Shown: in pieces, positions 10,789 to 24,129 of the stretch
How the letters are laid out: every line of letters starts with the position of its first letter
Numbering within the stretch: position 1 is the stretch's first letter
Source: a plasmid
Reading direction: 5' to 3' (one strand)
DNA: 64,000 nt
Sequence record: NZ_CP044080.1
Notes under the pieces: generated by a model
The model's database searches: none
Told to the model about the DNA's origin: nothing
What the model saw: only the letters and a program-made list of their open reading frames with translations
Made by a program: the position numbers and the translations under genes

Positions 10789-11807
10789 GCCAGCACCACC
10801 GCGATATCCGACAGGGCGCGGCTGGAGCAGGCAAGGATATAGCCCTGGGCTTGCTCCTCGGGCGTGATGCCGCCATTCGCAGCCATCACTACCTGGCCCG
10901 AGACCAGCTTGACCATGCAGGTGCCGCACATGCCTTCGCCGCAGCCGCAGGGGATGATGACGCCGTGGCGCAGGCTGGCTTGCAGCACGCTTTCGTCGGG
11001 GCGGATCGCCACGTCGCGGCCGGCGACCGTCATCGCGAAAGCCGGGCCGTCTTGGGCCACGGGGGCCGGGGCCGCCACGGGAACCGGCGCCCCGCCAAAG
11101 CTTTCGGTATGGAACTGTGCCTTGTCGCCGCCCTCGGCCGCGTGGATCAGCTGCGCCTCGGTCATGAAGCCCTGGGGCCCGCAGCAGAACACCTCGCGCC
11201 GCCCCAGATCGGGCAGGGCAGCGGCCAGCAGGGTGCGCGAGATGCGGCCGCGATAGCCGAACCAGCCGGGCGCCGGTCGGGTGACGCTGACCGCCACGCT
11301 GAGGTTTGGCATCCGCGCCTGCAATTCGGCCAGTTCGGCGGCGAACAGCACCTCGGCCGGCGCGCGGGCGGCGTGGAACCAGGCCACATCGGCCAGCGGC
11401 TCGGTCGCCGCAAGATGGCGCAGCATGGCGATCATCGGCGTCGCCCCCGACCCGCCCGAGACGAAGGCCAGCCGGTCATGGCATCGCAGCGCCAGCGTGA
11501 AATGGCCGCGCGGGCTGCGCGCCTGGACCCGCGCGCCGGGGGTCAGGTTCGCGTGCAGCCAGCGCGTCGCGCCGCCCTCGGCCTGCGCCTTGATCGTCAG
11601 TGCCAGGTCGCCATCCGTCCCGCCCGAGATGGTGAAGCTCCGCCAGACCGGCCCGCCGGGCAGCGGCACCCGCAGCACCAGCGCCTGGCCGGGGACAAAG
11701 CCCACCGGCGCCGCGCCGCGCAGCCGAAAGCTGCGGATCGTCGGGGTTTCATCCGCCACGCCGACACAGGTCAGCTCCAGCAGTCCGGCGTCGCCTGGCA
11801 TGGTCAT
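10785..11807 (-). CDS. Oxygenase reductase component: FNR-like FAD/NAD(P)-binding domain plus C-terminal plant-type 2Fe-2S ferredoxin (GbcB-like)
   Basis: RxFS flavin-binding motif (RSFTIS), NAD-binding region (AFVSGGSGATPM) and a C-terminal 2Fe-2S Cys cluster (CGCGEGMCGTCMV...C). 4-nt overlap with the upstream Rieske gene. Confidence 0.75.
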   Translation of the reverse strand: MTMPGDAGLLELTCVGVADETPTIRSFRLRGAAPVGFVPGQALVLRVPLPGGPVWRSFTISGGTDGDLALTIKAQAEGGATRWLHANLTPGARVQARSPRGHFTLALRCHDRLAFVSGGSGATPMIAMLRHLAATEPLADVAWFHAARAPAEVLFAAELAELQARMPNLSVAVSVTRPAPGWFGYRGRISRTLLAAALPDLGRREVFCCGPQGFMTEAQLIHAAEGGDKAQFHTESFGGAPVPVAAPAPVAQDGPAFAMTVAGRDVAIRPDESVLQASLRHGVIIPCGCGEGMCGTCMVKLVSGQVVMAANGGITPEEQAQGYILACSSRALSDIAVVLA

Positions 11808-13036
11808 TCCGCCGCCATCCGCGCCGCCGGTCCGCCGATGTGATCGGCCATCTTGCCCGCATACCAGTCCGAGAAGTTCCGCAGCATGAATTCGGAGGGC
11901 GCATAGGGGCCGGGCTTGTAGGCGCGGGACAGGATGCCGCGATGGTTGTTCTCGGCCAGGATCCGGTCCTCGTCATTGGTGGCGGTCCAGACCTCGGTCA
12001 GGCGCTGGATGTCGTAATCGACGCCCTCGACGGCGTCTTCGTGGACCAGCCAGGTCGTCCTGACGGCGGTGCGGTTGGCCGACAGCGGCAGGACGCGGAA
12101 GTGGATGATGTGGTCGGACAGGAAATGGTTCCAGTTGTTCGGCACGCGGAACATCCGCACCGAGCCAAGGTCGGGTTCGGTGAAGTCGGCGAGCAGCTTG
12201 TTGCAGGCGAGCCCCCCGTCCATGGTGAAGGACAGGCAGTTTTCGTTGAAGGGCAGACGGATGCAGCGGAACTCCAGCCCGCCGTCGGCCGGCTTGTGCG
12301 GCAGGCCCAGCCGGTCCCAGCGGTCGGTCGAACGGCCCATCAGCCCTTGGAACTGCGCCGCCACCAGCGGGTCGTCGGGCAGCGCGAATTCGACCAGCGT
12401 GACCAGCAGTTCCGGGTGGTTGCCCGCGCAATGATAACATTCGCGGTTGTTTTCGATCACCAACTTCCAGTTCGCTTCCTCGACGATAGTGGTCGAAAAG
12501 GCGACCTTGGTGCGATCGGGCCTGTGCGGTTCGATATAGGGCGTGACGCCCGCGCGGAACGCGGCCAGCGACGGCGGCTGGTCGGCGATGCAGACATAGA
12601 CCATGCCGCAGATCACCTCGACATGGACCGGGGCAAGACCATGCGCGGCCTTGTCGAAACCCTCGGGCATCTGGCGGGCGTTGATCAGCCTGCCGTCCAG
12701 TTCATAGACCCACTGGTGATAGGGGCAGACCAGCCGGTTCGCGCGACCCTGTTCCTTCTGGCAGATCAGCGATCCGCGATGGCGGCAGGTGTTGTGGAAT
12801 GCCGCCACCGCGCCGTCGCGGTTGCGCAGCACAACGATGGGATTGTCGCCGATCTGCAGGGTGACATAGTCGCCCGGGCGCGGGATCTCGGCCAGGTTGC
12901 AGGCGAACAGCCAGTCGGTTTCGAACACCGCCTTCATGTCGGCCCGAAAGATCTCCTCATCGACATAGAAGTCGCGCGGCAGCGAATGGCCGGGTTTGCG
13001 GTCCTGCAAGAGCTGGGCGATCCTGTCGTTCAGCAT
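11804..13036 (-). CDS. Rieske 2Fe-2S non-heme iron oxygenase, quaternary-amine N-demethylase family (GbcA / Stc2 / CntA-like)
   Basis: Rieske motif CRHRGSLIC...CPYHQW and a mononuclear iron site (NNRECYHCAGNHPEL). Lies beside a betaine-type ABC transporter and a GbdR-like regulator. Confidence 0.8.
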   Translation of the reverse strand: MLNDRIAQLLQDRKPGHSLPRDFYVDEEIFRADMKAVFETDWLFACNLAEIPRPGDYVTLQIGDNPIVVLRNRDGAVAAFHNTCRHRGSLICQKEQGRANRLVCPYHQWVYELDGRLINARQMPEGFDKAAHGLAPVHVEVICGMVYVCIADQPPSLAAFRAGVTPYIEPHRPDRTKVAFSTTIVEEANWKLVIENNRECYHCAGNHPELLVTLVEFALPDDPLVAAQFQGLMGRSTDRWDRLGLPHKPADGGLEFRCIRLPFNENCLSFTMDGGLACNKLLADFTEPDLGSVRMFRVPNNWNHFLSDHIIHFRVLPLSANRTAVRTTWLVHEDAVEGVDYDIQRLTEVWTATNDEDRILAENNHRGILSRAYKPGPYAPSEFMLRNFSDWYAGKMADHIGGPAARMAAE

Positions 13037-13789: not shown

Positions 13790-14377
13790 CTAGCGAGATC
13801 GCTCCAGCCGGCGCAGCATGTCGTGCGACCAGGCATAGGCCGGATCAAGGCTCAGGGCGTGGCGAAAGGCGGCGCGGGCCTCGTTCCGGCGCCCCAGCGC
13901 GGTCAGGCACATGCCCAGGTTGTGGTGCACGACCGCCCGCCTGGCATCCAGCGCCAGCGCACGGCGGTAAAGCGGCAGCGCCTTGGCAGGGCGGTCCATG
14001 TCGTAAAGGACGTTCGCGGCCTCGTTCCATGCGGGTTCATAGGCCGGGTCAAGTCCCAGTGCCACGTCGAAGGCCGCCAAGGCCGGCACGAACCGCCGCA
14101 GGTCGCGTAGCACCAGGCCCAGATTGCCCCAGTTCATCGCACGGCGCGGCCCCAGCCGGATGGCGGCGGCAAAGGCCTCGTGCGCCTCGGCCATCCGGCC
14201 CTGGGTCCACAGCACCGAACCCAGGCCACGCCAAGCGTCCTCGCCCGCCAGTTGCGCACGAAATGCCGCCTCGGCCGCGTCCAGCCGGCCCGCCCGCCAC
14301 AGATCGAAGGCGTGGGCCAGGCCGGGGTCGGCGGGGCGCCAGCCCTCCCACGCCGTGGGCGGTCCGTCAGCCGGCAA
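13790..14377 (-). CDS. Tetratricopeptide-repeat protein (last gene of the RiPP-like operon)
   Basis: Several 34-residue TPR-like units (W/LG/Y spacing, AxxAFxxALxLDPxY). 11-nt overlap with the upstream gene. Confidence 0.6.
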   Translation of the reverse strand: MPADGPPTAWEGWRPADPGLAHAFDLWRAGRLDAAEAAFRAQLAGEDAWRGLGSVLWTQGRMAEAHEAFAAAIRLGPRRAMNWGNLGLVLRDLRRFVPALAAFDVALGLDPAYEPAWNEAANVLYDMDRPAKALPLYRRALALDARRAVVHHNLGMCLTALGRRNEARAAFRHALSLDPAYAWSHDMLRRLERSR

Positions 14378-15005
14378 CGTGAAAGCACCCCGCCAGCATC
14401 ACCAGCCGTTCCCCGGCGGCCAGCGGCGGACGCAGATGCGCATGGCGCGAACCGAAGATCGCCGCCGCGCGATTGCTGCGCGCGGTCAGCCGCATCGCCA
14501 GTCCCGTGGCCGAGTTGTCGCCCCGAAAGATGAACAGCTGCATGCCGGGGCTGGGCTCGACCCCGTCGGGCCAGGCCGCGTCCAGATAGGTCAGCAGGTT
14601 GTATTTGCAGCTGTCGGCCTTGTCGCAATGCTCGCCCATGTGTTCGGAGGGGCCGGTGTATCGCGTGTAGCAGGTCGCGCTCCAGGACGGGGCGAGGCGT
14701 TCGCCGGTCAGCGCGTGCAGCCAGGCCACGACGGCGTCCGAGGACAGATAGCCCCGCGCGACGGGGCCCAGATGGGCGCGGCGGTTGTCCTGCGCGATCT
14801 CGCCCCGGTCGCGGCTGCCGGTCAGCTGCCAGCTTTCGGCATCAAGCTGACCCAGCGCTTCCTCCAGCAGGGCGCGGTGCAAGGCGGCGTTCAGCGCAGG
14901 GGGCCCAAGGACCGTGACGCCGGTGGCGCGGAAGGCGTCGACATGCGCCGGCCCAAGCGCGGAGGGGTCGGCGAAGACGGCGTCGGCAATGGGGGCGTCA
15001 GGCAT
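14367..15005 (-). CDS. Hypothetical protein, possibly a 2OG-Fe(II)-oxygenase-like (HxD...H) tailoring enzyme
   Basis: Candidate facial-triad residues (GEHCD...FGSRHAH). Translationally coupled to its neighbours by 8-nt and 11-nt overlaps. Confidence 0.4.
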   Translation of the reverse strand: MPDAPIADAVFADPSALGPAHVDAFRATGVTVLGPPALNAALHRALLEEALGQLDAESWQLTGSRDRGEIAQDNRRAHLGPVARGYLSSDAVVAWLHALTGERLAPSWSATCYTRYTGPSEHMGEHCDKADSCKYNLLTYLDAAWPDGVEPSPGMQLFIFRGDNSATGLAMRLTARSNRAAAIFGSRHAHLRPPLAAGERLVMLAGCFHVAG

Positions 15006-16194
15006 GGGCGGTCTCCTTCGGCAGGGCCTCGACGGCTTGGCGCAGGTCCTCCATCAGCCCGGCGCCGGCCGGGGTGGCGGTGCCGTTGTCGGACAGCACC
15101 CGCCAGCCCTGGCGCGTGTTCGCCGCCTGCCGGGCCAGCACCCCGCGCGCGAAGCGGGCCGAGGCCCCGCCCCGCGCCGCAAGCCGGTCATACCAGGCGC
15201 AGACGTTCAGAAAGGCGTGCACGCCCAGCAGCAGCCCGTCCAGCGGGCGCTTGTCGCTGCGCCAGGGGCTGTCAAAGCCCGCTGCCTCGGCTGCAGGGTC
15301 GGTCGCAACCACCAGCGGATCGACGGCCTTGGCCCAATGCATCCGCACATGGCTGGATTCGTGGCACAGGAGGTCGCCCACCGTTTCCGGCGCCCCCGCC
15401 GTCATCATGATCGTGCCGCAGAGCGATTGCGGCGAATGGCTGCGCTCATAGCCGCGCGGCGCCAGCAGGACCAGGCCCCGGACATGCCGCGCCAGCGTCT
15501 CGGCCGCCGCGGGCCAGACCTGCGCCATCAGCGCAAGGCCAGTCGCGATGCGGGCCATGGCGGCATGCAGCACCTCGCCCTCTGCCAGAGCGAAGGGCGC
15601 CAAGGCCGCCCGCACCGCAGGGTCGGCGTTCAGCACGTCAAGGCCGCCGATCCGGGGGGCTGCGTGGAACAGGGCGTTCCCGGTTCCGGGCGGTGCGGGG
15701 ATGCCGGTCGCGAAGGTTGCCGATACGCCGTCGTCGCGCATCAGCCCGACGCGGCCGCCGCTTTGGCGCAGGGCGATGACCCGCGCGCCGGGGGCGTGCA
15801 GGACGATGCGCAGATGCGGCAGCATCAGATCCGCCGCCAGATCGCCGCCGGTGAACACAAGGGTCAGATCCTCGATATCCGGGGCGCCGATCAGGTGGCG
15901 GGCCAGGGCTGCGCGTCGCTCGGCCAGGCTGCGCGGGTCCTTGACCCCGTCCGGCGCCGTGACCCCGGTATCGAGCGAGGCGAGCGGATGGCCAAAGACC
16001 CGCAGCCGCGCCGGTTCGGGGCAGGCCTTCAGGGCGCGCGCGACCTCGACCGCGCAGGGCTCGTCCGCGCCCTCCAGCATGTCCGCCGCGCGGCGCGCGC
16101 AATCCCGGGCCCAGAGCGCCTGCAGGTGGTCGATGCCCTGGCCGGGGGGGCCTGGAAAGACCAGCCCTGTCAGGTCGGATACCGGGCCGGTCAT
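14998..16194 (-). CDS. HExxH-motif peptide-modification protein (family that co-occurs with FxsB-type radical SAM/SPASM maturases; alphaKG-HExxH beta-hydroxylase-like)
   Basis: Single HExxH (LLCHESSHVRMHW). About 400 aa. ATGA overlap with the radical SAM gene stop. Confidence 0.65.
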   Translation of the reverse strand: MTGPVSDLTGLVFPGPPGQGIDHLQALWARDCARRAADMLEGADEPCAVEVARALKACPEPARLRVFGHPLASLDTGVTAPDGVKDPRSLAERRAALARHLIGAPDIEDLTLVFTGGDLAADLMLPHLRIVLHAPGARVIALRQSGGRVGLMRDDGVSATFATGIPAPPGTGNALFHAAPRIGGLDVLNADPAVRAALAPFALAEGEVLHAAMARIATGLALMAQVWPAAAETLARHVRGLVLLAPRGYERSHSPQSLCGTIMMTAGAPETVGDLLCHESSHVRMHWAKAVDPLVVATDPAAEAAGFDSPWRSDKRPLDGLLLGVHAFLNVCAWYDRLAARGGASARFARGVLARQAANTRQGWRVLSDNGTATPAGAGLMEDLRQAVEALPKETAHA

Positions 16195-17759
16195 GCCGCC
16201 ACCCGCGCGGGCGTGAAATCGTGCTGGAACCGCACGCCGCCCCCTTCGAAATAGGAACAGCGGTTCAGGTGGTCGAACGCCGCCGCGTCAAAGGACAGAA
16301 GATGCATCAGCCAGGGATAAAGCGTCTTGTAGAACGCACATTCCGGCGTCTTGTGGCGCACGGTCCCATAGCTTTCCCAGGCCTGCGCCGAACAGCCCGA
16401 CTGGCAGAGCTGCCGATAGGGGCAGACCGCACAATCGTCGAAATCCGCCGGCCGGCGGGACCGGATCTCGGCGATGCGGGCAGAGCGGCGGGCCGGCTGG
16501 GACAGGCTCTCGATGCCGTCGTCGAAGATGTTGCCCAGCCGCAAGCCCGGCGATTGCGTGGCCCGCCCGCAGGGATAGATATCGCCGTTCGCCGCGACGG
16601 ATTGAAAGCTGTCGCCCGCCCCGCACTCGGCCCGCATGCAGCGGGTGCGGCGCTGCTTGCTGGTCAGAAAGCGGCACATGGAATGGATGTTATCCTCAAG
16701 CAGCAGGTCGCGCCGTGCGATGACGCCGCGCAGCAGGGCCTGGAAGAACGCGATGATCTGGTCCTGGGTCAGCCCCACCCGGTCCCAGTTCTTGCGCGCG
16801 TCGCCCAGATAGGCGACCGGGTTCACCCGAAAGCCGTGGATCGCGTGCCCCAGCATAAAGGACACCAGCCCGTCGGGATCGCCGATGTTCATGCGGTTCA
16901 GCACCACGAGGCCCCCGAAGGGGACGCCGCCCTGCTGAAGCAGCTCGATCCCACGCATCAGCGCCGGAAAGCTGGCCTTGCCGTTCACCATGGGCCGCCC
17001 GCTGTTCTGCGCCTGCGCGCCCCCGTCCAGCGAGATGCCCACGCGGATGTCATTGTCGCGCAGCCAGTCCACGCGTTCGGGCGTCAGCAGCGTGGCATTG
17101 GTCTGGATCGACAGGAACACCGTCCGCCCGCTGGCCCCCGGGTGGTTGCGGATATGATCCACCAGCCGCTGCATGATCGCGAATTTCAGGAACGGCTCGC
17201 CCCCGGCGAATTCGAATGCCAGCACCCGCGCCTCGGTCATGGCAAAGGCCAGGTCGACCGAACGCAAAGCGATGGTTTCGTCCATCGCGGGCATCTTCTG
17301 GTTCGCGCCCGCCAGGCAATAGGGACAGGCGAGATTGCATTTCTCGGTCAGCAAAAGCTCGACCAGGTGGCCCTCGTCATAGTTCGGCCCGTCGGCGAAC
17401 ATCCCGGCATCGACCGCGCGGGCACCGTTCAGCGCGATCAGCCCGCGCCGCCACAGATGCGCCGCGAAATCCAGCGCGGCGTCGGCGCTGTCCATCCGGG
17501 CCGCCAGGGCGCCGAAATCCCGCCCGTCCATCCAGCGGTGCAACGCGGCCTCGTCCGGGTTCAGGAACGCCCATGAGGCGCTTTCGGGATGGATCGCCAG
17601 GGTCTCGCCCTGGACCCGGACCTGATCGACGCCCTCGGTCGACAGTCTTGTGTCAGGACGCAGCGTGACCTGGCCGAAGGGGGCATAGGTCTTGCCCTGG
17701 GTCGCGCCCAGCCAAGGCGCCTCGGCCGCGTCGCGAGAGGGACAAAAGACATAGCGCAT
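16191..17759 (-). CDS. Radical SAM/SPASM-domain peptide maturase (FxsB / three-residue-cyclophane-forming-enzyme-like) with a ~130-aa N-terminal extension
   Basis: CxxxCxxC (CNLACPYC), a G-rich SAM motif (FEFAGGEPF) and a C-terminal SPASM Cys cluster (CGAGDSFQ...YPCG...CAVCPYRQLCQSGCSAQ). Start MRYVF at 17757-17759 overlaps the stop of the upstream gene by 1 nt. Confidence 0.85.
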   Translation of the reverse strand: MRYVFCPSRDAAEAPWLGATQGKTYAPFGQVTLRPDTRLSTEGVDQVRVQGETLAIHPESASWAFLNPDEAALHRWMDGRDFGALAARMDSADAALDFAAHLWRRGLIALNGARAVDAGMFADGPNYDEGHLVELLLTEKCNLACPYCLAGANQKMPAMDETIALRSVDLAFAMTEARVLAFEFAGGEPFLKFAIMQRLVDHIRNHPGASGRTVFLSIQTNATLLTPERVDWLRDNDIRVGISLDGGAQAQNSGRPMVNGKASFPALMRGIELLQQGGVPFGGLVVLNRMNIGDPDGLVSFMLGHAIHGFRVNPVAYLGDARKNWDRVGLTQDQIIAFFQALLRGVIARRDLLLEDNIHSMCRFLTSKQRRTRCMRAECGAGDSFQSVAANGDIYPCGRATQSPGLRLGNIFDDGIESLSQPARRSARIAEIRSRRPADFDDCAVCPYRQLCQSGCSAQAWESYGTVRHKTPECAFYKTLYPWLMHLLSFDAAAFDHLNRCSYFEGGGVRFQHDFTPARVAA

Positions 17760-18622
17760 CAGGAGCTTCCTTGTAGAACAGGGACGAGGATGCGAACGCG
17801 GTCGCCATCGTGCCGAGGGCCGGGATGCCATCCGTCGGGGCCCAGGGCGATGTCGCGGCGCATCCGCGCCTCGATCCCGGCCAAAAGCGCGGGGGCCGTC
17901 CGCGCCAGCCCCCCGGCCAGACGCCGCGCGCGGGCAAGGCTGGTGGCGCAGGTCCAGGAACAGGGGAAATGTTCGGTCAGGACGGGACCGGCGTAGCGGG
18001 CAAAGACGTTCAACTCCCACGGCATCTCTGCCCCCTCCGGCCCCAGCCGCATCCGGCCCAGATCGCCCGCGCAATGCGTCACTGCCTGCGGCCAGTCGCG
18101 CAGGAACGCCTCGATGCAGCAGGGCGGATATCCCAGCGCAAGGCCCATGACCCGGTCCCAGCCCCGCGCCTCGGCCAGCCACAGCAGCCAGGCCAACGAC
18201 GCTGAGGCCGAGACGGCGACCGCCCGCCATTCCCCCGCCGCGCCGCTTGCCGGCACCCGCGCCGCGGCAAGGTTCGCATAGCCCCCCAGGCCCGCGTCCC
18301 GCTGGGGCAGGAAGGCCCAGGCCGAGGGCATGGCGGTCAGCGACCGCCGCCGCGCCCAGTCGCAGACGCCGGCGATCCAGGGCTCGGGCCCGTGCAGCAG
18401 GACTGCCGGCCGCAAGCCGGCGGCCAGCATCTCAAGCTCAGCCACGGTGCCGATGGGGGCGCCGGGCCCGGCCGCGGGGATGGCCGGGCCCGGCAGCTCG
18501 TCCTCGGGCCCATCCGGGATCGCGGCCAGCAGCGCGTCGGGCAGTCCCAGGGCCTGGGCACGGGCGCGCACCGACAGTCCCCCTTCGCCGGACCTTGGCG
18601 AGGGCGCTTTGGCGCGGTGCAT
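17759..18622 (-). CDS. Conserved hypothetical Cys-rich protein in the RiPP-like operon (candidate partner/peptidase/scaffold)
   Basis: Open frame between the precursor stop (7-nt gap) and the radical SAM start (1-nt overlap). Motifs GYPPCCIEAF, HCAGD and FPCSWTCATS. Confidence 0.5.
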   Translation of the reverse strand: MHRAKAPSPRSGEGGLSVRARAQALGLPDALLAAIPDGPEDELPGPAIPAAGPGAPIGTVAELEMLAAGLRPAVLLHGPEPWIAGVCDWARRRSLTAMPSAWAFLPQRDAGLGGYANLAAARVPASGAAGEWRAVAVSASASLAWLLWLAEARGWDRVMGLALGYPPCCIEAFLRDWPQAVTHCAGDLGRMRLGPEGAEMPWELNVFARYAGPVLTEHFPCSWTCATSLARARRLAGGLARTAPALLAGIEARMRRDIALGPDGWHPGPRHDGDRVRILVPVLQGSS

Positions 18623-18629
18623 GGGCGGC

Positions 18630-19256
18630 CTAGCGCCGGATGCGGGTGCCGCGCACCGTCATGTCAAAGGCCCCGGTCGCGGGCACATCGACGCGCAACC
18701 CGCCCGGCAGCGTGACCCGGGTCAGATCGCGGCCGGGGTTGAGGACCGTCGAGGGGTCGAAATTGGCATGCCCGCCCCCGTTCACGAAGCCCGGCGGCCC
18801 CGAGTTCACATGCGAGCCCGCAATCGAGCCGGGGTCGAAATTCGCGTGCCCGCCGCCGTTCACGAAACCGGGTGGGCCGGAATTCACATGCGTTCCCGTG
18901 CCCCCCGAGGGGTCGAAGTTCGCATGGCCCCCGCCGTTCACGAAGCCCGGAGGCCCCGAGTTGACATGCACCCCGGCAATCGAGCCGGGATCGAAGTTCG
19001 CGTGCCCGCCGCCGTTCACGAAACCGGGTGGGCCCGAATTGACATGCGCCCCCGAGATGCCGCCCGGATTGCGGATCGCGCCGATGGCGCTGGCCACCTC
19101 GGTGCGCAGGATCGCGGTCAGGTCCTTGAGCGAAAGATCCGCCAGCTTGGTCTCGGGCGCAAGCGACCTGCCTTGGGATGCAGGGCGGTCGGCCTCGGGA
19201 TCACTGCCTGGGGTCGTCGATTGGCCTTCCTTGGAACCCTTGGGTTCTTGTGCCAT
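18630..19256 (-). CDS. Putative multi-core RiPP precursor: ~68-aa leader, four tandem 26-aa core repeats (HVNSGPPGFVNGGGHANFDP) and a ~40-aa C-terminal tail
   Basis: GGAGA Shine-Dalgarno 8 nt upstream of the ATG. Four ~78-bp DNA repeats (18750-19052) differ mainly at synonymous positions, so the peptide repeat is conserved. Immediately upstream of the maturase genes. Confidence 0.6.
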   Translation of the reverse strand: MAQEPKGSKEGQSTTPGSDPEADRPASQGRSLAPETKLADLSLKDLTAILRTEVASAIGAIRNPGGISGAHVNSGPPGFVNGGGHANFDPGSIAGVHVNSGPPGFVNGGGHANFDPSGGTGTHVNSGPPGFVNGGGHANFDPGSIAGSHVNSGPPGFVNGGGHANFDPSTVLNPGRDLTRVTLPGGLRVDVPATGAFDMTVRGTRIRR

Positions 19257-19416
19257 GACTGAGTCTCCGTTTGCTTCAATAGAAAGTCCCAGATGTCGGA
19301 TGGATCTGGGCAGAGTCTTCCAGTCGAAAAATCACTGCAAACAGTTCGTTCAGATTACCCCAGAACAGGGATTCGAACAATCCCGCATCGCAGGCGCAAA
19401 GGCTTGCGCAGCGCCC

Positions 19417-20616
19417 CTATTGCCCGGCCGGGATCAGGGACGGATCGGCGGCCAGCGTCGTTCCGGGACTGGGCTGGGGCTCGGCGCCCTCTTCGAGTAC
19501 GCGGGCCGGCGCCGTCACCACGGCGCCCAGCGTGTGCAGCGTGCCGGCCGCGACCATGAAGATGCTGCCTCCAGAGCCGTTGTCGCTGGTCAGCCGCTGG
19601 CCCTGTGCCAGCTTGCGCCCGATCAGCCGCACGATGTCGGGGCTTTCGGCAAAGCGCGAATGGTGCGTGCCGCCCGGCACGTCGATCTGGCTCAGGTCGA
19701 TGGCGTCGATCCCCGCCTGCAGCAGGGCGGTGCGATAGGGTTCGCGCGAGGGGTCGATTTCGCCCACGCGCTCGACCCGACCCGCGATCAGCCGCGACAG
19801 ACCCAGTGCGCGGTCGTCCTTGGCCATGAAGATGGTGAAATGCGGGCGCGGGGCGGCCATTTCAATGAACTGGCGGGAAAACACCTCGATGTCGATATCG
19901 GGCGAGGCGAGGACCACGTCACGGATCTTGGGATTCACGGGGCCGCTGCGGATGCTCATCTGGCGCAGCGATTCCATGGTCAGGAAGGCGCCCATGGAAT
20001 GGGCCAGGATGGTGATCTGCGTGACCGAGGAGTCGTCCGCCAGGATTCGCAGCGACTGTTCCAGCGCGGTGCGGGAATAAAGCGCGCTTTCGCGGTCATA
20101 GTTATAGCCGACGGGGCTTCCACGCGACGGCCAGGTGAACAGGATCGGTGTCGCCGCCACATCGCCGTCATGCGCGATCTGGGCCAGCCGATAGACCGCC
20201 TCGCCATAGGTCGTGTTGAACCCGTGAACGAACAGCAGCACATGGCCGCCGACGCGGTGCTGGCGCATCCAGGCCCGGCCCTGCGCCACCGAACTGATGT
20301 CCTGCACCTGGCGGACGTGGAAATCGGTCGTCGGCTGGGGCGGACGGGTGCGCGGCCACTGGATCGTGCCACTGGGGCGGTTCGCGGGGATCCCCACCTT
20401 GACCGCGTCGAGATGCAACTGCGGGTCGCGCCGGCCGCCGTAACGCTCGGCCCGGTCGGTCAACATCTGGCGGTTGGTGGCCACCAGAACATCGACCGCA
20501 GGGCCGGTCTCGACCGGGGCCACGACCGGCTGCATCAGCCCGGTCGGCCGGGGCGAGCAGGCCGACAGCATTCCCGTCAGCAGGACCAGAAGGATCGCCA
20601 GCCGCACCGGCATCAA
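19417..20616 (-). CDS. Alpha/beta-hydrolase-fold lipoprotein (DUF900-type serine hydrolase)
   Basis: Lipobox (LLTGMLSAC), nucleophile elbow (LAHSMGAF) and the alpha/beta hydrolase order. Confidence 0.65.
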   Translation of the reverse strand: MMPVRLAILLVLLTGMLSACSPRPTGLMQPVVAPVETGPAVDVLVATNRQMLTDRAERYGGRRDPQLHLDAVKVGIPANRPSGTIQWPRTRPPQPTTDFHVRQVQDISSVAQGRAWMRQHRVGGHVLLFVHGFNTTYGEAVYRLAQIAHDGDVAATPILFTWPSRGSPVGYNYDRESALYSRTALEQSLRILADDSSVTQITILAHSMGAFLTMESLRQMSIRSGPVNPKIRDVVLASPDIDIEVFSRQFIEMAAPRPHFTIFMAKDDRALGLSRLIAGRVERVGEIDPSREPYRTALLQAGIDAIDLSQIDVPGGTHHSRFAESPDIVRLIGRKLAQGQRLTSDNGSGGSIFMVAAGTLHTLGAVVTAPARVLEEGAEPQPSPGTTLAADPSLIPAGQ

Positions 20617-20889
20617 GGCGACCCTGGTGGCAGCGGGGCGCAGCCGTGAAAGGTAAGGAAGGCGCGCCGGGGATGTGGGCCGCCAGGGGAAGCGGCCAGG
20701 GGGAGATCGCAGGGATGGCTGGTCACGGGCCGCCTCGAAATGGAAACAGTTGCCGGTGCTGTGGCCGGTCGCGGGGTCTTGCGCCCGGAGGTTACGTCAG
20801 GCTCGGCCGGTCCGTCCAGTCCCGGCGTGCTTGCGGGAACCGCGGTCCCGGACCCGGTTTTCGCTGCGACGCGCGTCCAGGCCCGCCGA

Positions 20890-23160: not shown

Positions 23161-24129
23161 GGAAGCCGCCAGATGAAGCCACTGACCCGAACCGCCCTGG
23201 TCTCTGCCGCCGCCCTTGCCGCCGCCCCGGCGCTGGCGGTCAGCGGCGAGGACGTCCTGCAAAACGCCTGCGCCGCCTGCCACGTCAAGCACGAAGACGG
23301 CCGGTGGGAACGCATCGACGCCGTCCGCAAGACGCCCGAGGGCTGGGACATGACGGTGACGCGGATGATGCGCAATCACGGCGTCGCGCTGGAACCGCAA
23401 GAGCGGGCGGCTGTGGTCCGCTACCTGTCCGACACCCGCGGTCTGACGCCCGAAGAAGCCGAGGGGCGCCGCTATATCCTGGAACGCGAACCAGTGGCCT
23501 TCGACGAGGGTCCCGATACGCTGATGACCCAAACCTGCGGCCGATGCCATTCCTATGCCCGCGTCGCCCTGCAACGCCGCACGCCCGAGGATTGGGCGCA
23601 TCTGGTGAACTTCCACCTGGGCCAGTTCCCGACGCTGGAATACCAGGCGCTGGCGCGGGATCGCGACTGGTGGGGCATCGCCCAGGCCGAGATCATTCCC
23701 TTCCTCGCCAAGACCTATCCGCTGGGCGAGGCGCCGCCCGCCTTTGCCGGCGACGCTTCGGGCGACTACGTCCTGGCTGGGCGCCAGCCGGGGCGTGGCG
23801 ACTATACCGGACGGCTGGCGCTGACGAAAGCGGGTGACGATTACGCCGTGACCATGACGCTGGACTTCGCCGACGGCAGCGCAAGCTACAAGGGCACCGG
23901 CCGCATCCTGGGCGCCGGCGAATGGCGCGCGACGCTGAGCGACGGCAAGACCGGGATCCGCCAGGTCCTTGTTTTTCACGACGGCCGCTTCGACGGGCGC
24001 TGGTACCACGCCGACAGCGACGTGATCGGCGGCAGACTGGCGGCGGTGACGATGCGGGGCTTTTTACGCCAGGCGACGCCGGGCCGAACCCGGAACGCCC
24101 GATGCAGACCAACAACGCGGGCAACCTGA
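23161..24129 (+). CDS. Diheme c-type cytochrome with signal peptide (QhpA-like alpha subunit of quinohemoprotein amine dehydrogenase; probably frameshifted near the 3' end)
   Basis: Signal peptide MKPLTRTALVSAAALAAAPALA. Two CxxCH motifs (CAACH, CGRCH) about 90 residues apart. The apparent authentic C-terminus continues in another frame to 24227. Confidence 0.55.
   Translation, partial: GSRQMKPLTRTALVSAAALAAAPALAVSGEDVLQNACAACHVKHEDGRWERIDAVRKTPEGWDMTVTRMMRNHGVALEPQERAAVVRYLSDTRGLTPEEAEGRRYILEREPVAFDEGPDTLMTQTCGRCHSYARVALQRRTPEDWAHLVNFHLGQFPTLEYQALARDRDWWGIAQAEIIPFLAKTYPLGEAPPAFAGDASGDYVLAGRQPGRGDYTGRLALTKAGDDYAVTMTLDFADGSASYKGTGRILGAGEWRATLSDGKTGIRQVLVFHDGRFDGRWYHADSDVIGGRLAAVTMRGFLRQATPGRTRNARCRPTTRAT

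Follow-up and report, generated by a model that had tools for sequence, protein, structure and literature searches.

Triceptides arise from a precursor that carries aromatic-x-X motifs and a radical S-adenosylmethionine (SAM)/SPASM enzyme, as in the systems of XncB, OscB/GrrM, MscB/FxsB, YhhB, HaaB, HtkB, ChlB and MicB. XncB and OscB link Phe C4 to Asn Cβ and Trp to the Cβ of Asn or Asp (PMC11002830), HaaB, YhhB and HtkB link His C2 to the Cβ of Ala, Arg or Lys (PMC11002830, PMC11499958), and MicB closes three rings in one core, at the motifs YSK, HAS and FTK (PMC12912966). A cassette of similar composition lies on a plasmid of Paracoccus yeei, in a stretch of 64,000 nucleotides of sequence record NZ_CP044080.1 (here called the window). 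It comprises six genes, the first of which is a minus-strand open reading frame (ORF) at 18630..19256 that encodes four copies of a 20-residue unit. We judge it probable, with some reservation, that this ORF is the ribosomal substrate of a self-contained six-gene modification operon that makes three-residue cyclophanes.

The likeness to triceptides extends beyond the pairing of precursor and enzyme. F-x-N and H-x-X are proven substrates of triceptide enzymes, several motifs per core occur (three in MicA), and some precursors, of the OscA/GrrA type, are Gly-rich repeat proteins. The cassette differs from triceptide systems in that its maturase belongs to no curated family of enzymes that form three-residue cyclophanes (3-CyFEs), and in that its precursor is long (208 aa), with one to five 20-residue units in the family, three triads in each unit and a conserved tail. 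A DUF483-like protein and a second oxygenase are further additions, and no protease is linked. Among the curated precursor families of NCBIfam and Pfam, including the Gly-rich repeat precursor of the OscA/GrrA type, none was matched by the window precursor.

Other described systems share parts of this arrangement. The Chl pathway, in which ChlB is fused to ChlH, and the FxSxx-COOH system both combine a radical SAM/SPASM enzyme with an α-ketoglutarate (αKG)-HExxH protein, and the latter also includes a tetratricopeptide repeat (TPR) protein. In the cassette, however, the HExxH protein is free-standing and distant from ChlH (E 0.009), the precursor lacks an FxSxx C-terminus and the TPR protein is small (195 aa). 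The minviopeptin (mic) system joins a triple-ring core made by a radical SAM enzyme (MicB) to an Fe/αKG enzyme of double-stranded β-helix (DSBH) fold (MicC), likewise with no protease, and MicC removes the C-terminal follower by oxidative cleavage at Gly. The 212-residue oxygenase of the cassette differs in having no sequence match to solved proteins, MicC (9VKM) included if that entry was in the PDB copy searched; a MicC-like cleavage role would be hypothetical. In the poly-cyclopropylglycine system TvgA/TvgB, a TVGG-repeat precursor is modified by a radical SAM enzyme at every repeat and an Fe/αKG enzyme is present in the cluster (PMC11002830). The Val positions of the cassette units are replaceable, by contrast, with His, Phe and Asn conserved, and the cassette has no transporters.

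The HXS antiphage system resembles the cassette in having a His-x-polar repeat protein, HxsA, and radical SAM enzymes of the SPASM type, HxsB and HxsC. Some relatives in the cassette family carry a signal peptide or a LysM peptidoglycan-binding domain, as HxsA does. The cassette nevertheless has one radical SAM enzyme rather than two, no HxsD, two oxygenases and H-x-N motifs set within a 20-residue unit. Identity with HXS was rejected on these grounds, together with the score of the maturase against the HxsB model (128.5, cut-off 370) and the absence of a signal peptide from the window precursor. PADLOC matched no defence model beyond generic radical SAM and 2-oxoglutarate (2OG) enzymes, and a known antiphage system was dropped as an explanation.

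A ribosomal peptide modified by a radical SAM enzyme at aromatic-x-X motifs is already known as a kind of system. The precursor family is new, as are a maturase outside the curated families, the lack of a protease or exporter, and the fixed set of two oxygenases of different fold with a DUF483-like protein and a TPR protein. Full-text searches with motif strings, with the names of the organisms combined with terms for peptides that are synthesized ribosomally and modified after translation (RiPPs), and for His/Asn cyclophane repeats found no description of the cassette; these searches did not cover published triceptide similarity networks.

The repeat gene and its coding strand

The precursor begins MAQEPKGSKEGQ and consists of a leader, four units with the identical sequence HVNSGPPGFVNGGGHANFDP, and a C-terminal tail that ends VTLPGGLRVDVPATGAFDMTVRGTRIRR (Table 1). 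The units recur with a period of 26 aa (78 nt), separated by Gly/Ser-rich linkers of 6 aa. An initial annotation, made from the letters of the sequence, had described four 78-bp repeats that diverge at synonymous sites and keep an identical 20-residue peptide, and the alignment of the units bore this out. Tandem Repeats Finder reported a period of 78 at 18753..19054 (3.9 copies, 75% matches) and a stronger period of 156 (90% matches). Because the 156-nt period is the stronger of the two, the array is best described as a two-unit block that was duplicated (A-B-A'-B'). There are four differing sites between units 1 and 3, seven between units 2 and 4, and 9–11 in the other pairs.

The core copies in the window show 51 pairwise differences in 14 variable columns, all of them at third codon positions and synonymous. 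Equal rates at the three codon positions would give this pattern with a chance of (1/3)^14, or about 2e-7. Alignment by codon position was a check proposed in the initial annotation, which took third-position divergence to imply purifying selection on the peptide. That conclusion holds, but the argument needed further tests of the frame. A plus-strand ORF at 18640..20649 (669 aa) has its third codon positions in common with the minus-strand ORF, and the third-position pattern alone therefore cannot pick the coding frame.

The two frames are told apart by their replacements. In the four units of the window, the plus frame contains the replacements L/F, C/W and F/L, and the minus frame contains none. 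When 51 copies of the identical 20-residue peptide were collected from 13 sources (the window and related loci), they were encoded by 50 distinct DNA sequences, 72–100% identical, in which third positions varied at all 20 codons and the 40 first and second positions were constant. The antisense frame of the same copies encodes 21 different peptides, several of them with stop codons. The GC content at the first, second and third codon positions (GC1/GC2/GC3) is 0.67/0.57/0.81 in the minus frame, as in neighbouring genes, and in the plus frame GC1 is lower than GC2.

These comparisons also bear on the possibility that the repeats are untranslated, whether as a tandem repeat that codes for nothing or as an antisense shadow cast by the plus-strand ORF. 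The length of that ORF and the third positions common to both frames speak for it. The plus frame, however, is subject to replacement within the window and acquires stop codons in orthologous copies, its GC1 < GC2 is atypical, and it runs antisense through both the precursor gene and a DUF900 hydrolase gene (Pfam E 1e-80). The minus-strand peptide is invariant across phyla at 72–100% DNA identity, and RefSeq calls a coding sequence (CDS) on the minus strand. We therefore regard an untranslated array as extremely improbable. The 669-aa ORF stays open because its third positions are shared with the true minus-strand genes in DNA of 68% GC; it is an antisense artefact, and the initial annotation had rightly doubted that it was a real gene. 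Taken together, the sequence comparisons indicate that the minus frame is a real, translated gene with very strong purifying selection on its peptide. An antisense ORF may, in high-GC genomes, share third positions with the true gene, and third-position divergence then needs a second test.

Outside the units, the leader has a variable N-terminus, probably disordered, and then a conserved motif of an amphipathic helix, K-L-A-D-L-S-L-K-D-L-T-A-I-L-R-T-E in the window and LTxxDLxAxxxxEV in the consensus of the family alignment. The family consensus of the tail is VTLPDGxxVxLPAxGPxDxxVRGFRITR. A leader of about 68 residues had been estimated previously; its actual length is 70 residues. The ribosome-binding site GGAGA ahead of the ATG and a tail of about 40 residues ending in RIRR were both found as annotated. 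No Pfam or NCBIfam family matched the precursor, its leader or its tail, and a scan for promoters and terminators gave nothing above chance.

Triads, maturase and candidate ring chemistry

The precursor heads a translationally coupled operon. Five genes follow it on the same strand, with junctions of 7 nt or overlapping junctions (TGATG, ATGA), and encode in order a DUF483-like protein, a radical SAM/SPASM enzyme, an αKG-HExxH hydroxylase, a DSBH Fe/2OG oxygenase and a TPR protein. Synteny was judged wherever the contig was long enough, and the six-gene order was kept in about 17 loci (L002–L011, L013–L015, L017 and L019–L021), including those with the most divergent precursors. The syntenic loci come from Paracoccus, Marinobacter, Nitrosospira/Nitrosovibrio, Nitrospira, Acidobacteria and metagenomes. 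Their flanks differ from genome to genome, with housekeeping genes in Nitrosospira, insertion sequence (IS) elements in L015 and plasmid DNA in Paracoccus. The constancy of the six genes in unrelated flanks indicates that they are a functional unit that moves horizontally. By domain matches and synteny, the precursor is a gene of the substrate type that opens a radical SAM/SPASM operon for peptide modification.

Each unit of the window contains three triads, H-V-N at positions 1–3, F-V-N at 9–11 and H-A-N at 15–17. An exhaustive profile search gave 54 representatives. For the wider family, 65 distinct units were compared, anchored only on positions 4–6, 14 and 18. Triad 1 was HxN in 61 of the 65; triad 2 was HxN in 47, FxN in 14 and HxD in one; and triad 3 was HxN in 56, HxD in six and FxD in one. 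The middle residues of these units were free (V, A, T or K at position 2; A, S, V, T, E, I, P, D or N at position 10). The rule for a triad is thus His or Phe, then any residue, then Asn or Asp, which is the motif of triceptide precursors. A resemblance of the aromatic-x-Asn triads to three-residue cyclophane sites had been proposed in the initial annotation, and the pattern in the wider family agrees with it. Of the triads named there, F-V-N and H-A-N stand; F-D-P does not, as F18 is constant and positions 19 and 20 vary. A search for homologous precursors with variable repeat number, also suggested there, returned 85 clusters, all unnamed, with one to five units each in many genomes. The Paracoccus unit was matched exactly by 214 of 272 units.

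The gene two downstream of the precursor, in the same operon, encodes the candidate maturase. The protein contains the domains PF04055 and PF13186, the cluster motif CNLACPYC, a C-terminal SPASM motif CxxCx5Cx3C and an N-terminal extension of about 135 aa, so that the precursor does have a radical SAM/SPASM enzyme gene close by. Its start, MRYVF, was fixed by alignment of orthologues, which are 47–75% identical across loci.

From the triads and the adjacent maturase we infer cyclophane chemistry. The N-terminal helix of the precursor, and possibly also its C-terminal tail, would dock the peptide on the enzymes. The radical SAM enzyme would then take a Cβ hydrogen from the invariant Asn at unit positions 3, 11 and 17, and the Cβ would become bonded to an aromatic residue (His1, Phe/His9 and His15, respectively) that lies two positions upstream. 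Three three-residue rings per unit would amount to 12 rings and a mass change of −24 Da for the window protein, as in triceptides. Afterwards the HExxH enzyme would β-hydroxylate His, Asn or Asp within the rings or next to them, in the manner of ChlH, whose hydroxylation of His and Asp β-carbons takes place once the cyclophane has formed (PMC12636437). The 212-residue oxygenase would add further hydroxylation, or cut the backbone oxidatively.

Several observations weigh against this assignment. The maturase scored below the cut-off of every curated family. Its best hidden Markov model (HMM) scores were to DynA (150, cut-off 450), PapB (148.6), anSME (134.5) and HxsB, and the models of cyclophane enzymes scored lower: AmcB 92.8 (cut-off 425), GrrM/OscB 85 (310) and YhhB 72.9 (445). 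XyeB and FxsB were absent from the 25 best models. By these scores the maturase falls within no recognised curated 3-CyFE family. In a search of the PDB its match to CteB, a thioether enzyme, was closer (64.8 bits) than that to ChlB (9gm3, 34.9 bits). Its N-terminus gave no Pfam or NCBIfam match, and no RRE-type domain was found there. One natural variant of the precursor, P0001, has Val instead of Phe at position 9 of unit 1. In addition, the DUF483-like protein is given no part in the proposed mechanism, and no protease or exporter is linked to the cassette in the approximately 17 loci.

The position of the maturase outside all curated cyclophane families leaves room for other chemistry on the units, such as a C–N bond between a His nitrogen and Cβ, an ether, epimerisation or another functionalisation of an Asn C–H bond. 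SPASM enzymes are chemically diverse, and the best HMM match, DynA, is the dynobactin maturase, which makes both C–C and His-N to Cβ links (PMC11002830). On the other hand, the recurrence of H/F-x-N/D, in which the middle residue can vary freely, is the exact triceptide motif, and the presence of Phe in place of His at position 9 suits an aromatic carbon acceptor, not an imidazole-nitrogen nucleophile. Replacement of Val2 and Val10 by Ala, Thr, Glu or Asp likewise argues against Val-directed chemistry of the cyclopropylglycine type. We therefore consider other chemistries unlikely, and continue to favour three-residue cyclophanes.

Four more specific candidates were set aside. Thioether chemistry, as in sacti- and ranthipeptides, is ruled out by the lack of Cys, which is absent from the window precursor and from 82 of the 85 family clusters. 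TvgB-like cyclopropanation of Val was dropped, the replaceability of Val2 and Val10 making it an unlikely conserved step. The SmaO/SmaX cascade from aspartate to aminomalonate was dropped because SmaX has an HD domain and resembles neither partner in the cassette. The dynobactin/daropeptide class does not apply, as the DynA and DarW models (115.6 for DarW, cut-off 650) scored below their cut-offs and the units contain neither Trp nor Tyr.

Table 1. Positions of the six cassette genes, the parts of the precursor gene and neighbouring genes in the window
Feature	Position	Strand	Length	Remarks
Precursor/substrate gene	18630..19256	-	208 aa; 627-bp CDS	leader, four 20-aa units, C-terminal tail
Ribosome-binding site GGAGA	19264..19268	-		7 nt 5' of the ATG at 19256; read from the sequence
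Leader	19047..19256	-	aa 1-70	variable N-terminus, then conserved amphipathic helix motif
Unit 1	18987..19046	-	aa 71-90	
Unit 2	18909..18968	-	aa 97-116	peptide identical to unit 1
Unit 3	18831..18890	-	aa 123-142	peptide identical to unit 1
Unit 4	18753..18812	-	aa 149-168	peptide identical to unit 1
C-terminal tail and stop codon	18630..18752	-	aa 169-208	conserved in the family
DUF483-like protein	17759..18622	-	287 aa	starts 7 nt past the precursor stop; syntenic in all loci
Radical SAM/SPASM peptide maturase	16191..17759	-	522 aa	start MRYVF; TGATG overlap with the upstream stop
αKG-HExxH-type peptide β-hydroxylase	14998..16194	-	398 aa	motif HESSH; ATGA overlap with the maturase stop
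Fe(II)/2OG oxygenase	14367..15005	-	212 aa	DSBH fold; H126-x-D128...H190 invariant
TPR protein	13790..14377	-	195 aa	last cassette gene; syntenic in all loci
DUF900 alpha/beta-hydrolase lipoprotein gene	19417..20616	-		directly upstream of the precursor
Rieske-type oxygenase gene	11804..13036	-		adjoins the TPR gene
peaA	23173..24224	+		quinohemoprotein amine dehydrogenase alpha subunit

Partner proteins and the fate of the product

Both oxygenases could be placed. The 398-residue protein scored 89.6 bits against TIGR04267/IPR026337 (cut-off 40), which assigns it to the family of αKG-HExxH peptide β-hydroxylases. Its HExxH motif is kept in orthologues (for example HEASH in L003), and in the PDB it matched 22nu (E 1.6e-9) as well as ChlH (8s5f). 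The 212-residue protein was identified by a fold search only, its sequence profile giving no match in the PDB. Its structural model (pLDDT 91.8) matched BesD/Hal, Tpa1/OGFOD1, bacterial prolyl 4-hydroxylase (P4H) and PHD2 in Foldseek, with E values of 1e-9 to 1e-7 and a probability of 1.0, and one homologue is tagged PF13640. The model and the invariant residues identify it, at the level of predicted structure, as a DSBH Fe(II)/2OG oxygenase with a 2-His-1-carboxylate triad.

The 287-residue protein was assigned to no Pfam or NCBIfam family. Its invariant residues are H77, C168, C169, H218, C221 and C225, within GYPxCC ... HFPCxWxC, and a weak match to DUF483 at the invariant GYPxCC motif was obtained with eight of eight orthologues tested (best E 0.00096). 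The literature retrieved for DUF483 concerned DUF483x families with no relation to it. A profile search of the PDB found no solved relative, and Foldseek with the model (pLDDT 79) found none of significance in the PDB.

Separate cores may be released from the precursor, as the term 'multi-core' would have it. The product could instead be a modified repeat protein with His-rich knots that acts in the periplasm or envelope and is not excised as peptides, with metal binding or a role as a defence or envelope effector as proposed functions, by comparison with HxsA or signal-peptide RiPP proteins. The lack of any protease or transporter consistently present in or beside the cassette, across the approximately 17 loci, points this way, as do the 40-residue tail, which is conserved like a domain, and the existence of tail-less relatives that carry a Sec-type signal peptide and have long linkers, basic or rich in Gln. 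A further relative, P0045, has an N-terminal LysM domain, and HxsA provides a precedent for maturation by cytoplasmic radical SAM enzymes followed by export (PMC13128918). The signal-peptide and LysM variants suggest, for the product as a modified protein, a possible function in the cell envelope.

The evidence on the other side comes mainly from the window itself. The window protein has no signal peptide, and its linkers are short and Gly/Ser-rich, as in multi-core precursors. The comparison with HXS is weakened by the HxsB score, the single radical SAM gene, the missing HxsD and the PADLOC result, all given above. Furthermore, both αKG enzyme families include oxidative backbone cutters that might substitute for a protease, namely PflC and PosC (PMC12636437) and MicC, which cuts at Gly (PMC12912966). 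By analogy, and speculatively, oxidative cleavage by the αKG enzymes could explain why a protease is absent. In about 77% of units a Gly stands at the second residue ahead of the first His. We are inclined to doubt that the product stays whole, but count this as a serious rival account of its fate.

A bolder proposal, which we think has a slim chance of being correct, is that the module represents a new class in which triple-stapled 20-residue units, doubly oxidised by Fe/αKG enzymes and matured with a DUF483-like component, form an envelope polypeptide and not a diffusible antibiotic. Its physiological role would be one such as the handling of copper or another metal, or protection of the envelope. 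A role of this kind fits the enrichment in nitrifiers and denitrifiers and the occurrence of signal-peptide and LysM variants.

As a compact, defined six-gene peptide-modification system, the cassette is a lead for genome mining. If the cyclophane reading is true, one enzyme puts up to 12 strained rings, of the His-x-Asn and Phe-x-Asn types, on one substrate, and two oxygenases of different fold act afterwards, which would be useful for enzyme discovery and peptide stapling. Maturation steps still to be understood are suggested by the DUF483-like partner and by the lack of a protease or exporter.

Distribution, relatives and neighbouring genes

The precursor and the radical SAM enzyme of the window are 100% identical to those of NZ_CP038055.1, and three other P. 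yeei plasmids (H1–H3) match the region at 98% identity. On P. yeei plasmids RefSeq annotates the precursor CDS as a hypothetical protein, and the cassette as hypothetical proteins with a generic radical SAM protein. In a scan restricted to a single genome for each species, 13 loci contained the precursor: one in Paracoccus yeei, two in Marinobacter, one in Nitrospira, seven in Nitrosospira/Nitrosovibrio, one in Sphingomonadaceae and one in Acidobacteria. Nitrifiers (Nitrosospira, Nitrosovibrio and Nitrospira) account for eight of these 13 species-level matches, and the denitrifier genera Paracoccus and Marinobacter are among the rest. The pattern may hint at a connection to metal-dependent nitrogen metabolism, or sampling bias may account for it. 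Occurrence in Nitrosospira, Nitrosovibrio, Nitrospira and the opportunistic pathogen Paracoccus yeei is of ecological interest.

In L015 (1..17452) IS and transposase genes flank the cassette, and the P. yeei carriers are large plasmids that are predicted to be non-mobilizable. The IS flanks of L015 and the plasmid location in P. yeei fit horizontal spread of the six-gene module.

Near-identical homologues (P0001 and P0002) vary in copy number and in sequence. A two-unit version of 156 aa, on a contig of 726 bp, could be the result of assembly collapse. A second architecture, which combines a Sec-like signal peptide with long linkers, basic or rich in Gln, and lacks both the leader helix and the C-terminal tail, was found in P0080–P0083, P0123, P0126, P0133, P0138, P0139, P0143, P0144 and P0149, and at locus L017. 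At L017 the second-architecture gene is followed by the DUF483-like gene, the radical SAM gene and the start of an HExxH-like gene, at which point the contig ends. In P0045 (L020 10001..10885) the LysM peptidoglycan-binding domain stands in place of the variable N-terminus, and the other five cassette genes are kept.

The genes on either side of the cassette in the window were also compared with those of other loci. The DUF900 gene upstream of the precursor is conserved only in P. yeei and absent from other loci, and it is probably outside the system. The Rieske-type oxygenase next to the TPR gene is similar to the glycine betaine monooxygenase GbcA. A Rieske gene also lies beside the TPR gene in L014 (15619..16770), but it is only 26% identical to the window copy and on a different relative strand; the linkage in the two loci is probably a coincidence. 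Farther along, peaA lacks residues 293–452 of the protein of P. yeei FDAARGOS_252, with an internal deletion of about 480 bp and a frame change at 24048, and is probably a pseudogene in this strain. The adjoining gene, peaB, encodes another radical SAM peptide maturase, which belongs to a known system.

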